Source: Candidatus Latescibacterota bacterium
Lineage (GTDB): Bacteria > Latescibacterota > UBA2968 > UBA8231
NCBI GenBank assembly: GCA_964291625.2
Contig: OZ220089.1
Span: forward strand, 1,216,001-1,280,000
Direction of reading: 5' to 3'
Length of the DNA stretch: 64,000 nt
Position 1 is the stretch's first letter. Every line of letters starts with the position of its first letter. The translations under genes and the position numbers were made by a program. Positions 55,241 to 60,808 of the stretch are shown here, one piece after another. The notes below the pieces were generated by a model. The model saw nothing but the letters and a program-made list of their open reading frames with translations, was not told where the DNA came from and made no database searches.

Positions 55241-55285
55241 TTGACCAGCCATGCCCCGGGGTATATACTCAGGTATATACCCCGG
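55241..55285 (+). promoter_or_regulatory. vapBC promoter with palindromic operator
   Basis: TTGACC-17 bp-TATACT, overlapped by the perfect inverted repeat CCGGGGTATATAC-TCAG-GTATATACCCCGG (55256..55285). Confidence 0.8.
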
Positions 55286-55322
55286 TTTCTGTACCAGCCA
55301 TCATGCTGCAGGAGGTACACCC

Positions 55323-55550
55323 ATGCAGACAGCGAAGCTGTTCAACAACGGCCGCAGCCAGGCCGTGAGACTCCCGAAGGAGTTTCGCTTCAGCGGAGGT
55401 GATGTCTATATCAAGAAGTACCAGGGCATCGTCATGCTCTTGCCCAGGGACTCCCCCTGGACCTCGCTCGTGGACAGCCTGGACCGCTTTTCCAGTGATT
55501 TCATGGACGAGAGGAACCAGCCCGACCAGCAGCAGAGAGCATCCCTGTGA
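55323..55550 (+). CDS. vapB: AbrB-type antitoxin VapB
   Basis: TAKLFNNGRSQAVRLPKEFRF. AGGAGG RBS. Confidence 0.92.
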   Translation: MQTAKLFNNGRSQAVRLPKEFRFSGGDVYIKKYQGIVMLLPRDSPWTSLVDSLDRFSSDFMDERNQPDQQQRASL

Positions 55551-55951
55551 TCGATTTCCTGCTCGACACCGACACCTGCATCTACCTCATCAAGAGACAA
55601 CCGCCGCAAGCTTTGGCGAGACTACAAGCCTTGGATGTCTCGCAAGTCGGAATCTCCACGATCACGCTCAGCGAATTGGAGTACGGAGTTTCGAGGAGTT
55701 CGAAACCAGAGCACAACAAGCTGGCTCTGGCCGAATTCGCCGCTCCCCTGGAGATCATCCCGTACGGCGACGCGGCAGCAGCACATTACGGCCGCATCAG
55801 AACCTTTCTTGAGCGCCAAGGTACCCCGATTGGCCCGCTGGACACCCTGATCGCAGCACACGCATTGGCCCTCGCCTGTACCCTCGTGACGAACAACGAC
55901 AGGGAGTTTTCTCGCATTCCCAGCCTCGTGGTCGAGAACTGGACCTGTTGA
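55547..55951 (+). CDS. vapC: PIN-domain toxin VapC
   Basis: LLDTD, ELEYG, IGPLDTLIAAHA and VTNNDREF. Confidence 0.92.
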   Translation: MIDFLLDTDTCIYLIKRQPPQALARLQALDVSQVGISTITLSELEYGVSRSSKPEHNKLALAEFAAPLEIIPYGDAAAAHYGRIRTFLERQGTPIGPLDTLIAAHALALACTLVTNNDREFSRIPSLVVENWTC

Positions 55952-56126
55952 TGCGCACTCTTGACCACCCCCGGCAGGTCGCGCTGGTAGTCCGCACCCC
56001 GAGTCGAGCGCGAAGGGGGAGTCCTCCCGGCCGCTTGAACGGGCGGGGTCACTGGGAGATTCCAGACCGCAGTTTGCCGCTCAGGTTCTCGCTGGATTGC
56101 AGCAAGATGGCCGGTGTGTAGCCTGC

Positions 56127-56990
56127 CTACAGGATCCCCCGGTCCCGCGACCGCCCGTCCCTCACCAGCCGGCCGCTGTGGAGCACCCCCCGCATGCAGC
56201 GGTCCCGCCAGTCGGCGGAGGCGTCGTAGAGCTTCTTCGCCGTGTCGATCTCGGTGATCAGCACCGCGGGCCGGTGGGACGGCGCCTTGTTGACGATCAG
56301 GCCCTCGGCGTTGACGACGAAGCTCGGCCAGGCGTAGCGGCGGGTGCCGTTGTTGGCGCTCACGGCGTAGTAGTTGCTGGCCGCCGCGGCCTGCAGGGTG
56401 GCCGGCACGGTGACCCGGTACTTGTCGCGGGCCTCCTTGGGGCCGCCGGCGTTGTGGAAGGAGACCAGCATCAGGTCGACGCCCTGCCGCTTGTACTCGC
56501 GGAACAGCTCGGGATAGCGGAAGTCGTGGCAGATCAGCAGCCCGCAGGTGAGGCCCCGCGCCCGGAAGGTGATCAGCGCCTCGCCGGGGCTGTAGTTGGC
56601 GAGGTCCCCGTCCTTCCCGCCGGCGCCGCCGGTGCAGAACATCTTGTCGTAGCGCGTGACGATCCGCCCCCGGGTGTCGATGACGTAGAGGGAGTTGTGG
56701 GGCTTGTGTCTCCCCGAGAGGCGGTGGTTGCAGCCGACGACGACCCAGACCCGGTGCCGCCGGGCCGCGGCCATCACCCCTTCCATGGCCGCCGTGATCC
56801 GCTCCCAGTCGGCGGCGTCGTGGGCGGTCACCTCGACACCGAGATAGGCGGAGATGCAGGCCTCGGAGAAGTGCACGAGGTGGGCGCCCCGGGCCCGGGC
56901 GGAGGCGATCTGACGGGCCGCGAACCTCAGGTTGCGGCGGGGGTCCTCGTCGACGGGGAACTGGCAGGTCGCCAGGACGAGCTTGGCCAA
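56127..56990 (-). CDS. Carbon-nitrogen hydrolase (nitrilase superfamily)
   Basis: FSE, YDK and ICHDFRYPE (E-K-C triad). Confidence 0.88.
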   Translation of the reverse strand: MAKLVLATCQFPVDEDPRRNLRFAARQIASARARGAHLVHFSEACISAYLGVEVTAHDAADWERITAAMEGVMAAARRHRVWVVVGCNHRLSGRHKPHNSLYVIDTRGRIVTRYDKMFCTGGAGGKDGDLANYSPGEALITFRARGLTCGLLICHDFRYPELFREYKRQGVDLMLVSFHNAGGPKEARDKYRVTVPATLQAAAASNYYAVSANNGTRRYAWPSFVVNAEGLIVNKAPSHRPAVLITEIDTAKKLYDASADWRDRCMRGVLHSGRLVRDGRSRDRGIL

Positions 56991-57079
56991 GGGAGCCTCC
57001 TCCGGGTCGGTCGGTGCGCGGGTTGAGAATTGCCGTATTATAGGCTGTGGCGCCCGCCCGGGCGGCTGCCGCTCCCTCC

Positions 57080-57358
57080 ATGCCGAGAGTCGAGATCTAC
57101 CTGAGCCCGTTCTGCGCCTTCTGCTGGAAGGCGCGGCTCATGCTGCGGCGCGAGGGGATCCGCTACCGGAAGATCCCCATCCGCTTCTACTTCGGGATCA
57201 AGCTGCCCACGGCCCGCTTCAGGGAGATGGTGCGGCGCACCGGCGGGGACTCCACCATCCCCCAGATCTTCGTCGACGGCGAGTACCTGGGCACCGAGGA
57301 AACCCTCGAGGAGCTGCAGCGCCGCGGCGAGCTGAAGAGACGCCTCGGAGACGGCTGA
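57080..57358 (+). CDS. grxC: Glutaredoxin
   Basis: CAFC and TIPQIFVDG. Confidence 0.75.
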   Translation: MPRVEIYLSPFCAFCWKARLMLRREGIRYRKIPIRFYFGIKLPTARFREMVRRTGGDSTIPQIFVDGEYLGTEETLEELQRRGELKRRLGDG

Positions 57359-57376
57359 AACAAGGACGAACTCACG

Positions 57377-58756
57377 ATGTCGATATCAAGGCGGCTGGAA
57401 TCCTGCTCTCTCGAACGCATCACCCGCATGAAGGAGGTGGTGGAGCAGGAGATCGGCCGCATCGACGGCCAGGTGGCCGAGGTCGAAGCCGAGCTGGACG
57501 AGATGACCGCCAAGGCGGACACGGTCAGCCTGAGCATGAGGCACGGCCAGTACGAGCTGGGCCTGGACAAGGCCGAAGCCCAGGTCGGCAAGCTGAACGC
57601 CGCCCGGGAGAAGCTGCAGGACAAGCTCCGGCTCATCGAGCAGGCCAGACAGAAGCGGCATCTCTTCGACGAGCAGGCCCGGGTGCTGGGCGGCACCGCC
57701 CGAGTGAGGATCAAGGACCTGCTGATCTTCTTCCTCATCCTGGGCCTGGTGACCATCCTCGTCGTCGACCTGATGGGCATCGGGGCCACGGGAGGAGGCG
57801 CCCTGGCCAGCGCGGAAGTGGTGGAGGGAAGCATCGATCGGATCACCATTCTGGAGGGCGGTGAAGGCTACGAGCGGGTGATCCTCCACATAGCCGACGC
57901 CCACGGCTCGGGCGGCCTCGCCATTGGGGAGGTCACCGGAGGCAAGCTGACGCAGGTGGACATCATCCACCGCGGCGAGAGCTACGTCGACCCCGTGGTG
58001 GAGGTCCTCCCCCATTTCTCCGTGGCCAAGCTGTGGATCTTCTGGATCATCGACGTCATCTGCTGTGCCCTGTTCATGGCCAACTTCATCTTCGAGCACA
58101 AGCTGGCCGCCTCCAAGAAGTGGTACTGGAAGAACAACTGGATCGACTTCATCACCTCCATCCCCCTGCCCCCGTTCCAGATCATCGCAGCCGCCGGCGG
58201 CGACTTCGGCGTCATCCGCCTGGGGCGCCTGCTCCGGGCGGTGCGCATCCTGCGGGCCCTGCGGTTGTTCCGCATCGCCCTGTTCTTCTGGCGGGGGATG
58301 GACCACCTGAGCACAACCCTCGACGTGAGGCTACTCAAGCGGTCGCTGCTCTACGGCCTGCTCTCCCTCGTCTTCGGCGCCATCATCTTCATGGGCGTGG
58401 AGCGCATGGAGTCCGGCTCGGGCTTCGGGCCGAGCCTCTGGTGGAGCTTCACGACGCTGGTCACCGGGGGCTACCCCGACATCCACAACCCCGAGACCGC
58501 CCCCGGAAAGATCCTCACCGTCTTCCTGGTGATCACCGGCATGGTGCTGGTGGGTGTCTTCACCGCCACCCTGACCAGCATCCTCGTGAGCGACGAGGAC
58601 TCGCTGAAGGCCGAGGAGCTGGAGGAGCAGGTGGGGATCGTCACCAAGATCCAGCAGGAGATCCAGGACACCAACGAGCGCCTGGCTCGACTGGAGGGCG
58701 CCGTCCGCGACATCGGCGACTCGGTCAGGGGGCGGGGAAACGACTCCGGGACGTAG
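57377..58756 (+). CDS. Voltage-gated-type ion channel (6TM) with N-terminal coiled coil and extracellular insert
   Basis: WIDFITSIP (S3), RLGRLLRAVRILRALRLFR (S4), LWWSFTTLVTGGYPD (pore) and a C-terminal coiled coil. Confidence 0.85.
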   Translation: MSISRRLESCSLERITRMKEVVEQEIGRIDGQVAEVEAELDEMTAKADTVSLSMRHGQYELGLDKAEAQVGKLNAAREKLQDKLRLIEQARQKRHLFDEQARVLGGTARVRIKDLLIFFLILGLVTILVVDLMGIGATGGGALASAEVVEGSIDRITILEGGEGYERVILHIADAHGSGGLAIGEVTGGKLTQVDIIHRGESYVDPVVEVLPHFSVAKLWIFWIIDVICCALFMANFIFEHKLAASKKWYWKNNWIDFITSIPLPPFQIIAAAGGDFGVIRLGRLLRAVRILRALRLFRIALFFWRGMDHLSTTLDVRLLKRSLLYGLLSLVFGAIIFMGVERMESGSGFGPSLWWSFTTLVTGGYPDIHNPETAPGKILTVFLVITGMVLVGVFTATLTSILVSDEDSLKAEELEEQVGIVTKIQQEIQDTNERLARLEGAVRDIGDSVRGRGNDSGT

Positions 58757-58923
58757 AGGCAGTGCGCGATGAGGCCCCGCGGATCGAGCGCGAGGTCCAC
58801 GACATCCGACTCCGGCCCATACAGGCTGTGCGCCCCTGCGCGCAAGGCCGGGGGCCGCACAGCGCCTGCCCGGCGCGGGGCCGGCTCACCCGCCCGGATG
58901 GAGGCGCGGAACCCGGGGTCGGC

Positions 58924-59709
58924 TCACCCCCAGCGGTACTCCGGCGGATCGAAGACGAAGCCGTGGAAGAACCGGCGCTGCGCCGGCGACAGCCCCTGCA
59001 GGAAGTCGCGGCCGTAGCGCCACTGCTCGGCGCAGGCCAGCATCCACGGGTGCTCGTACCCGTAGTAGAGCATCACCCGCTTTCCCCCGGGGCGGGTGAA
59101 GGGGCCGGCCGAGTGCCACAGGGCGTTGTGGAAGAGCACCGCCGTCCCCGGCCCGCCGCATACCTGCACCGCCCCCGGCAGCGCACCCTCCGCCTCCGGC
59201 TCCAGCAGCGCCTTGTGACTCCCCGGGACCACGGTCAGGTTGCCCTGGTCGGGGGCGCTCATGTCGCTCAGGTAGTAGCCGACCTTGAACTGCAGCAGCG
59301 GGATGTGGGGCTTGAGGTTGCGGAAGCCGTCCTGGATCCCGTCGATGTGCCAGCCCCGCCCGTGGTGCTCGCCGGGCTCGACCTCGTAGAAGGCGTCGGT
59401 CGAGTGCAGGTGCGGCATCTCGTTGAAGAGGCCGTGGACGTAGGACATCATCGGTCCGTGGTCGAGCATCTCCAGAAAGAGCGGGTCCTCGTCGAGCAGG
59501 TGCATGACCCGCGCGTTGGGCCCGTCGAGCCGGTCGGCGAAGGCCGGATCGTGCTCCCGCCGGAACCCCGGCGAGCGCCGGCGCTCGATGGTCCGCTCCA
59601 GGGCCGCGAAGAGGGCCTCGACCCGGTCCGGGGCGAGGAACTCCTCCAGCACGAGGTAGCCGTCGACATCGAAGGAGAAGCGCTCGGCGGCGGTGGGATG
59701 ATCGGTCAT
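58924..59709 (-). CDS. PhyH-family dioxygenase
   Basis: FDVDGYL, WHID, VVPGSH and ALWHS. Confidence 0.85.
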   Translation of the reverse strand: MTDHPTAAERFSFDVDGYLVLEEFLAPDRVEALFAALERTIERRRSPGFRREHDPAFADRLDGPNARVMHLLDEDPLFLEMLDHGPMMSYVHGLFNEMPHLHSTDAFYEVEPGEHHGRGWHIDGIQDGFRNLKPHIPLLQFKVGYYLSDMSAPDQGNLTVVPGSHKALLEPEAEGALPGAVQVCGGPGTAVLFHNALWHSAGPFTRPGGKRVMLYYGYEHPWMLACAEQWRYGRDFLQGLSPAQRRFFHGFVFDPPEYRWG

Positions 59710-59992
59710 GGGGGCAGCGGTTCCTTGCGCGGGACACCCGTGGGGTTCTCTTCCCCGGGCCGGCAATATAGGCGGGAGCGGGCGCAGGCAGGGCGCCGCC
59801 CCCTGTCGCTGAGGATCCGGCCAGGACCGGCGCGGCGCTCGGGGGGGCTTCCGCCTCCCGGCCTCCGAGTCCGCCAAGCCGCCCACCTGGCAGAGATAGA
59901 GACCGGGGGGCGCCAGGCCCGACACCGGTTGGCCGCGGCATGCCCCCCCTCTATCTTGCCGATCCTCGCAAACGCCACCGGAGAGACCTCCG

Positions 59993-60808
59993 ATGCTGAC
60001 GCAAGAACAACTGCAGCACTTCGACGTCTTCGGCTTCCTCTGCCTGCGCCAGATCTTCTCCCCGGAGGAGATGCAGGAGATCACCGAGGCCGCCGACCAG
60101 CTGTGGCTCGAGGACCGTGGCGGAGAGCCCGACGACGGGCGGCCCCAGAGCCTGGGGAAGTTCGCCGAGCACAGCCCCCGGCTCCTGGACCTGGCGGAGG
60201 ACGACCGCATCTTCGGCGTCGCCTCCGACCTGCTGGGCCCCGGCTTCCTGTGGTCGGGATCGGAGGGCAACAAGGACGGAGCCGACGACGGGGAGCACAA
60301 CTGGCACGCCGACCGCCCCGGGGCCGCCGAGACCGAGTACCGTCGGCTCAAGATGATGGTCTACCTGGCGCCCACCACCCGGGACCGGGGCGCGCTGCGG
60401 GTGATCCCCGGCTCCCACCGCATGCCCTTCCACGAGTGGCTGTGGCCCCTGCAGGCCAACCACTTCAAGGACGGCACCGTGGGCGACAGCTTCGGCCTGG
60501 ACGGGGGCGAGGAGGTCCCCTGCTGCCCCCTGGAGACGATGCCCGGCGACGTGGTCTACTTCCACCACAGCCTCTTCCACTCCGCCTACGGCAAGTTCCC
60601 CGAGCGCCGCTACGTCGCCTTCAAGTTCGTCACCCCGCCCGACACCGAGGCCAAGCTGCGCTCGATGAAGCACTACGCGGGCCACGCCTTCGACGTCGAC
60701 CCCGCCCTCCTGGCCCGGCCGCGCCTGCGGACGATCACGGAAGGCCTGCTGGAGCTGGGAGAGAAGGCGGCGGCTCTCACCGACGGCGAGGGCTCCCAAG
60801 ATCGATGA
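59993..60808 (+). CDS. PhyH-family dioxygenase
   Basis: FDVFGFL, WHAD, LRVIPGSH and LFHS. Confidence 0.88.
   Translation: MLTQEQLQHFDVFGFLCLRQIFSPEEMQEITEAADQLWLEDRGGEPDDGRPQSLGKFAEHSPRLLDLAEDDRIFGVASDLLGPGFLWSGSEGNKDGADDGEHNWHADRPGAAETEYRRLKMMVYLAPTTRDRGALRVIPGSHRMPFHEWLWPLQANHFKDGTVGDSFGLDGGEEVPCCPLETMPGDVVYFHHSLFHSAYGKFPERRYVAFKFVTPPDTEAKLRSMKHYAGHAFDVDPALLARPRLRTITEGLLELGEKAAALTDGEGSQDR

Follow-up and report, generated by a model that had tools for sequence, protein, structure and literature searches.

A Kv-like channel clade with a phage-type two-repeat β module in the S1-S2 loop of the voltage sensor

Introduction

Prokaryotic voltage-gated channels are workhorses of channel structural biology. 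To our knowledge, none is known whose voltage sensor bears a folded domain on its outer face. The nearest functional analogy for such an arrangement may be the eukaryotic polycystin-mucolipin domain (PMD), which lies between S1 and S2 and comprises about 200 residues. In TRPP and TRPML channels, the PMD forms a folded extracytoplasmic domain atop the transmembrane (TM) core and is thought to act allosterically in gating (PMC7054860). Here, we describe a channel gene of a Candidatus Latescibacterota bacterium (assembly GCA_964291625.2, contig OZ220089.1), which encodes a small β module in the same loop. The gene lies in a window of 64,000 nucleotides, the whole stretch of DNA that was analysed (positions 1,216,001 to 1,280,000 of the contig), and all coordinates below are positions in this window. 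It occupies 57377..58756 on the + strand and encodes a 459-residue Kv-like channel with six TM segments and N- and C-terminal helical or coiled-coil domains, as seen from the open reading frame (ORF), Pfam, the match to KvAP and Foldseek.

Like KvAP and the Shaker-type Kv channels, the protein has six TM segments, an S4 in which every third residue is an arginine, an S2 and an S3 with acidic counter-charges, and a P-loop pore. Unlike these channels, it holds a folded β module of 77 residues in the S1-S2 loop, it starts with a helical hairpin of ~105 residues and has no T1 domain, and its S6 runs on into a long helix. With the PMD it would share a folded extracytoplasmic domain on a tetrameric cation channel with six TM segments. 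This analogy is one of position and presumed role only, and no homology is claimed; the PMD is much larger than the module. In a literature screen of records without full texts, we found no description of the repeat that builds the module, nor of a prokaryotic Kv channel with a domain between S1 and S2. The string GGSGY, which is typical of the repeat, did not occur among the matches listed, and a word search of the accessible part of one further paper gave no mention of such a repeat (PMC3037559).

Results

Position and fold of the module

The module spans residues 136-212 (~77 residues) and consists of two repeats of ~38 amino acids, delimited by alignments, hidden Markov models (HMMs) and structural models. 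Repeat 1 (57782..57898, + strand, as are all parts of the channel; residues 136-174) contains strands at residues 143-149, 152-160 and 167-173. Repeat 2 (57899..58012, residues 175-212) follows directly, with strands at 181-187, 190-198 and 207-213. An earlier note, which was made from the DNA alone, had placed the insert at 57782..58013. Its start is correct (codon 136 begins at 57782, with the G of GATGGG) and both peptides that it quoted are present as written, but its end runs one base over, the last base of residue 212 being 58012.

In the insert-less relative P0127, the Pfam Ion_trans match begins at profile position 7 and takes in the helix preceding the loop. Together with the helices of our model at residues 107-133 and 216-243, this places the insert between S1 and S2. 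Most insert-less relatives have ~10 residues between these two helices, which agrees with the short loop that the earlier note had called usual at this site.

The Smith-Waterman alignment of the two halves of the module covers 34 positions and scores 58. Shuffled versions of repeat 2 gave a mean of 22.1 (standard deviation 4.5, maximum 44), and none of 2000 reached the observed score. Across 42 aligned homologues, the invariant residues of an 84-residue piece are G5, G8, G20, G31 and Y34, followed by G58, G69 and Y72. These are the G...G-x-Y positions of both repeats.

Folded alone with its homologue alignment, the module is predicted with a predicted local distance difference test (pLDDT) score of 92.3 and a predicted TM-score (pTM) of 0.80, and each repeat contributes three strands. 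In the full-length AlphaFold2 (AF2) model, residues 131-220 have a pLDDT of 81-92 and form six strands between residues 143 and 213. The linkers are short, with ~9 residues from S1 to the first strand and 2 residues from the last strand to S2 (DSSP of the model). A conserved P-H-F marks the junction between the module and S2. The structural neighbours of the module are weak immunoglobulin (Ig)-like matches.

The insert is usually strongly acidic. Its net charge is -8 here, and for 13 of the 15 inserts of one alignment it lies between -4 and -8. The flanks preceding S1 and the S2-S3 loop are basic. In the established topology of Kv channels, the S1-S2 loop is outside, and from this topology and the distribution of charge we infer that the module faces the periplasm. 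Both carrier phyla are, we take it, diderm, and a module in an outside loop would therefore be periplasmic.

Relatives of the repeat

A search of the PHROGs with the insert of the window matched phrog_2885, annotated as 'baseplate wedge subunit', at E 1.8e-5. Further matches were phrog_701 and phrog_19630 (both 'virion structural protein'), phrog_438 and phrog_708. When 15 inserts from different genomes were searched at E<=0.001, all 15 matched phrog_2885 (best 3.3e-10, that of the window at 1.2e-5) and 14 matched phrog_701, while phrog_19630 and phrog_708 were matched by 11 and 10 of them, respectively.

The predicted fold points to the same proteins. Among the predicted viral structures of BFVD, 13 matched the module at E<=1e-3, all with a probability of 1.00 and an identity of 24-32%. 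In 12 of these matches, TMq is 0.80-0.87 with a root-mean-square deviation (rmsd) of 0.8-2.4 Å over 76-91 columns; the weakest has a TMq of 0.76 and an rmsd of 6.5 Å over 94 columns. At E-values up to ~2e-3, the matched proteins include one of Stenotrophomonas phage Mendera, a 'structural protein' of Synechococcus phage S-ShM2, the 'baseplate wedge initiator' of Bellamy and a 'structural protein' of ACG-2014d.

An HMM built from channel inserts alone, applied to gp084 of Synechococcus phage ACG-2014g, detected 12 copies (E 1.6e-47) within its first 2569 residues. This 'virion structural protein' of ~7000 amino acids is encoded by a 21-kb gene directly after gp6, and one of its repeat copies reads GSGAAATAIITKGTVSNILITNGGSGYTSQPSITI. 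A phmmer search with the whole channel also found the proteins P0140 (26 stretches) and P0266 (5 stretches), which in turn matched phrog_701 at 1.4e-126 and phrog_2885 at 2.4e-51. P0140 has 3161 amino acids and consists largely of this repeat, with at least 35 copies according to the channel-derived HMM.

These PHROG, BFVD and HMM matches assign the module to a repeat family, G-x-G-A...G-G-S-G-Y, that is found in virion or baseplate proteins of cyanophages and T4-like phages, and they confirm the motif that the earlier note had named. The channel and the phage proteins share a unit of ~35-38 amino acids with the pattern G-x-G-A...G...G-G/x-G-Y...P-x-V and a predicted six-stranded module of two repeats. 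They differ in their setting: the phage repeats occur in many tandem copies in soluble virion proteins, whereas the channel has exactly two in a loop of a membrane protein. The copies of the window channel have also drifted from the canonical GGSGY, to GGEGY and RGESY. The similarity to phage repeats exists, and the insert is a standard, conserved domain, but of a channel subfamily that is uncharacterised.

The module has no match in Pfam or NCBIfam even at E<=10, and P0140 has no Pfam family at E<=0.01. A curated family for the repeat seems to be missing. In a tblastn search of a phage collection, one phage (two records) was matched at E 9e-3, single-sequence BLAST being too weak here. A word-indexed homologue search with the insert returned channel orthologues only and is uninformative on the range of the repeat.

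Distribution and phylogeny

The best 120 homologues of the channel have 67-96% identity at 95-100% coverage, lie on contigs of up to 7.4 Mb, and all 120 carry both repeats. In a sample of the phylum, the gene is present in 50 of 168 genomes and is always single. Five genera have it: g1 (4 of 9 genomes, plus the genome of the window), g9 (3 of 3), g11 (2 of 2), g13 (26 of 31) and g24 (14 of 15). Throughout, it is a single-copy gene on chromosomes of 4-8 Mb. Five genus-mates of the window's organism gave no match at E<=1e-20, at a genome completeness of 76-96% that leaves absence unproven.

Among 150 listed representatives of a clustering at 50%, nine channel-type entries, some of them fragments, contain the repeat (P0015, P0123-P0126, P0128, P0141, P0200 and P0224), and none of the other channel-type entries does. 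Of 80 titled genome loci, 57 carry the repeat. Their labels are Gemmatimonadota, Gemmatimonadetes, Gemmatimonadaceae, Latescibacterota or Latescibacteria in 46 cases and Verrucomicrobiota groups in seven; two loci belong to one 'Pseudomonadota' metagenome-assembled genome (MAG), one is a fragment labelled 'Aminicenantes' and one has no taxon label. The 23 loci without the repeat come from Planctomycetota, Myxococcota, Kiritimatiellia, Leptospiraceae, archaeal MAGs and Roseibacillus persicicus KCTC 12988. The homologue of R. persicicus is a close one with an S1-S2 loop of 17 residues and no module, and the module is thus dispensable for the core channel.

We computed a tree of 57 rows and 368 columns by a quick method, with the insert columns removed. 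All 22 insert-bearing rows fall within one clade of 24, with a support of 99 in the Shimodaira-Hasegawa-like approximate likelihood ratio test (SH-aLRT). The two other rows, R. persicicus and the identical P0127, nest beside three insert-bearing Verrucomicrobiota rows (SH-aLRT 97). This topology requires two changes, either a gain and a loss or two gains. In the approximately unbiased (AU) test, an exclusive clade of the 22 rows was not rejected (delta lnL 14.4, p 0.074), and a single origin of the insert suffices to fit the tree. The insert defines a clade of channels in Gemmatimonadota- or Latescibacterota-labelled and Verrucomicrobiota genomes.

Some labels in this clade disagree. From L035 to L086, near-identical channel genes are filed under Gemmatimonadota or under Candidatus Latescibacterota, and those closest to the protein of the window are L048 (Gemmatimonadaceae) and L037 (Latescibacterota). 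The Pseudomonadota-labelled MAG holds two closely related insert-bearing channels on different contigs (L038 and L087), which together are sister to the Gemmatimonadota-type clade. They could be a pair of paralogues, a strain mixture or a binning problem.

Other inserts occur at the same site. A subgroup of Planctomycetota channels has an unrelated insert of ~55 residues in this loop and forms one clade (SH-aLRT 99; P0148, L089, L091, L092, L095, L097, L100, L101 and L106); that of P0148 has no Pfam match. P0189 carries a third insert, longer and again unrelated. The family has a hot spot of domain gain in its S1-S2 loop.

Selection on the insert

Constraint was estimated as omega (dN/dS) from 43 distinct orthologous coding sequences, using the 542 of 903 pairs with a dS of 0.1-1.2; the pairs are not independent. 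Omega is 0.19 in the insert, 0.07 in S2-S6, 0.23 in the N-terminus, 0.21 in S1 and 0.20 in the C-terminus. The insert is a constrained domain under purifying selection, less constrained than the membrane core, and the same analysis gave no sign of diversifying selection on it.

The channel and its selectivity filter

Pfam assigns residues 221-404 to Ion_trans (PF00520; 57.1 bits at E 2e-15, above the cut-off of 25) and residues 329-404 to Ion_trans_2 (38.1 against 22.5). The closest solved sequences are those of KvAP (6uwm at E 1.5e-12; also 2a0l and 1orq), followed by Kv2.1, Kv1.3 and Kv1.2. The full-length AF2 model has a mean pLDDT of 76.4, and Foldseek relates it to Kv4.2, Kv1.2-2.1 and Kv1.3, with low TM-scores because the arrangement of the domains is not captured by a model of the monomer.

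According to DSSP of this model, the protein starts with a cytoplasmic helical hairpin (57377..57694, residues 1-106; helices 12-45 and 62-104). These ~105 residues also include a short β hairpin at 52-61 and, conserved throughout the clade, an R-L-E-S-C-S-L-E-R motif at residues 5-13. The N-terminal domain matches no Pfam family and gives weak coiled-coil-type matches at most; it may be a replacement for the T1 domain.

S1 (57695..57775, residues 107-133) aligns with S1 of the insert-less relatives. Behind the module, the model places S2 at 58022..58105 (residues 216-243), the S3 region at 58115..58192 (residues 247-272, with helices 247-259 and 267-272) and S4 with the S4-S5 linker at 58211..58312 (residues 279-312). 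S4 contains seven arginines, one at every third position (281, 284, 287, 290, 293, 296 and 299). In an alignment of 63 homologues, D226 of S2 is invariant and D257 of S3 nearly so. Given this S4 and the conservation of both aspartates, the voltage sensor of this Kv-like channel is complete.

The pore consists of S5 (58328..58402, residues 318-342), the pore helix with the filter region (58424..58483, pore helix residues 350-363; AF2 model and alignment to KvAP) and S6 (58499..58591, residues 375-405). S6 is continuous with a coiled-coil-like C-terminal helix (58592..58738, residues 406-454; model and Pfam). From its sequence, we expect a cation channel of the Kv/KvAP kind that bears a voltage sensor and would assemble into tetramers and conduct in a voltage-dependent manner.

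The selectivity filter, T363-G-G-Y-P-D368 (58463-58480), aligns with TVGYGD of KvAP and departs from the K+ signature T-V/I-G-Y/F-G-D. Among the homologous sequences collected, TGGYAD occurs 122 times, TGGFGD 36 times, TGGFAD 21 times and TGGYPD seven times, TGGYAD being the form in most of the clade. As the second glycine of GYG is replaced by alanine or proline in the clade, K+ selectivity of the channel appears doubtful. The atypical TGGYAD or TGGYPD filter thus raises a second question beside that of the module, namely ion selectivity.

Viral or cellular origin of the module

The earlier note had called the module virus-derived. In the ESM Atlas, its neighbours fall into clusters whose few recorded taxa are mostly Uroviricota. 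Carriers also occur in bacterial genomes. P0266, with 821 amino acids, has RCC1 repeats followed by at least nine copies of the module repeat. A Puniceicoccaceae-labelled genome encodes two large proteins with one module each (E 5e-4 and 2e-3), one of which has an N-terminal hydrophobic leader. Within the phylum of R. persicicus, reading frames of 656-9178 amino acids with the module were found in 5 of 151 sampled genomes; these may include prophages. An HMM search of 66,062 six-frame ORFs of the window's genome found the channel as the sole carrier, and tblastn gave no other. Eight Kv-like channels from viral contigs lack both the insert and the N-terminal hairpin, and seven of them have the canonical TVGYGD. 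A viral origin of the module is unproven because giant or secreted proteins of bacterial genomes carry it too, and the data do not support the term virus-derived. The direction of transfer cannot be read from them.

Gene neighbourhood

A glutaredoxin gene (57047-57358; PF00462, 2.9e-10) lies on the same strand and ends 18 nucleotides upstream of the channel start; the two genes may form an operon. The other neighbours are a CN-hydrolase, two PhyH-family dioxygenases, an enolase-superfamily enzyme and a MazE-type/PIN pair. The dioxygenase genes stand back to back directly downstream of the channel (58924-60808). The pair, a MazE/AbrB-type antitoxin and a PIN-domain toxin, is VapBC-like with an overlap of 4 nucleotides and lies 1.4 kb upstream of the channel (55251-55951). 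The gene order, including the pairing with glutaredoxin, is common to two genus-mates only, and six loci of other genera share the channel alone. Across genera, no partner gene is conserved beside the channel.

Among 23 loci compared, eight have a sulfatase-family gene no more than 3 kb from the channel (L032, L033, L034, L088, L089, L090, L092 and L018). We considered it as a conserved partner and treat it as a chance neighbour, since its position and strand vary and the phyla concerned are presumably rich in sulfatases.

PADLOC-DB 2.0 has no family for the channel. Among seven neighbours, the CN-hydrolase alone was matched, weakly, to CARF (E 0.0066), and neither VapBC-like gene had a match.

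Public sequencing runs that hold parts of 56000-59600 are mostly labelled as sponge metagenome (21 records from 12 studies), and the organism seems to be sponge-associated. In one metatranscriptomic library, contigs cover 57707-58296 and 58334-58564. We set this aside as evidence of transcription: the neighbours are covered on both strands at similar depth, and DNA carry-over is possible.

Discussion

The observed architecture, the homology of the module, its confidently predicted fold, its conservation and its phyletic pattern lead us to propose the following model. A compact six-stranded Ig-like β module of ~77 residues would have been inserted into the periplasmic S1-S2 loop. It was probably acquired once, at or near the base of the channel clade, and has stayed under purifying selection. 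With two residues to S2 and ~9 to S1, it would be mounted almost rigidly on the voltage sensor. As S2 is the helix that holds the counter-charges of S4, this tight join would place the module so that it could bias the sensor. We therefore propose a periplasmic accessory domain that tunes the gating of the channel. This could happen along two routes. The module may contact the sensor or the periphery of the pore, or it may bind a ligand in the periplasm, for which a glycan or cations (the insert is usually strongly acidic) are the best candidates, and relay the effect to S2. Taken as a whole, architecture together with a gating-modulating module, we regard this proposal as evenly balanced between right and wrong; the modulatory role and the ligand are inferred.

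Several observations weigh against a regulatory module. No ligand site was identified, and the invariant glycines and tyrosines look structural. The module may touch the sensor, the pore turret or nothing. The omega of the insert is not below that of S1 or the termini, so that a merely tolerated structural domain fits equally well, and one lineage, R. persicicus, lives without the insert. A hint at a sugar ligand comes from a candidate relative. A profile of the 15 inserts found one plausible relative among solved structures, residues 441-509 of Dpo31 (28lx, 28mg and 8ck1). The match aligns both G-x-G-Y motifs but is marginal, with an E-value of 0.026 over the whole sequence and of 0.35 in its best stretch, and the Dpo31 entries are absent from the Foldseek and VIA search results for the module. 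Dpo31 is the tailspike depolymerase of phage Carin-1 and has an inserted Ig-like domain, D3*, which was soluble and for which its authors suggest a sugar-related role (PMC13317679). Sugar binding by D3* is their own speculation. The host protein of D3* is a β-helix tailspike and not a channel, and our comparison is by sequence alone. If the match is true, the module would have served as a loop insertion on at least two occasions.

An alternative is a passive domain, which would stabilise or shield the voltage sensor or aid its membrane insertion and assembly, with neither ligand nor regulation. Such a domain would explain why its invariant residues are those of the fold, why its omega of 0.19 resembles that of the linker and terminal regions, why other branches of the family accommodate two unrelated inserts at this site and why one lineage does without it. 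Yet both repeats are kept in all 120 orthologues and across two phyla, the module is tightly fused to S2 and its acidic character is consistent. We consider a purely passive role possible, if on the unlikely side.

The stronger form of our gating proposal, in which the module is a true periplasmic sensor, wired directly into S2, whose ligand is a glycan or some other molecule from the envelope or a host, appears rather doubtful at present. If correct, the protein would be a ligand-modulated voltage-gated channel, a prokaryotic counterpart of the PMD-bearing TRP channels. It would also give a first function to a very abundant and uncurated structural repeat of phages.

Less probable still is a tether to the envelope, in which the module would bind peptidoglycan, a lipoprotein or a periplasmic glucan and thereby localise the channel or couple it mechanically. 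The module has relatives in phage proteins directed at surfaces and in bacterial proteins that are secreted or giant. This is consistent with such a role, as is the suggestion made for D3*. On the other hand, a module of ~77 residues on linkers of 2-9 residues would reach only a few nanometres from the inner membrane, going by the usual dimensions of the cell envelope, and there is no partner gene that stays beside the channel across genera. We therefore hold a tether to be quite improbable.

Finally, the earlier note had thought of a depolarisation-type defence. In this reading, the module would recognise a phage component and the channel would then depolarise the cell in abortive infection. 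Its sole evidence is the family resemblance to phage virion repeats, next to the VapBC pair 1.4 kb upstream, and we judge it very improbable. The channel has no PADLOC match, and its neighbours are metabolic (glutaredoxin, CN-hydrolase, PhyH, enolase-superfamily enzyme). Gene order is preserved within the genus, without any recurring defence genes, and five genera have the gene once each on chromosomes of 4-8 Mb. Selection on the insert is purifying and shows nothing of an arms race. The module would face the periplasm on a channel that keeps its full voltage sensor, and the Kv-like channels of viral contigs lack the insert.

Taken together, these data define a Kv-like subfamily that is marked by an uncurated phage-type Ig-like module on the voltage sensor and by a non-canonical filter. 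With close homologues that carry the module, lack it or hold unrelated inserts at the same loop, the clade is a natural experiment, and it allows a direct test of how an extracytoplasmic domain may bias a voltage sensor. In the literature consulted on the repeat, no function is assigned to it. The channel offers a tractable form, two copies inserted in a loop, of a repeat that fills thousands of residues in the baseplate-region proteins of cyanophages, and the binding partner of the module on the channel may hint at the role of the repeat on the phage.

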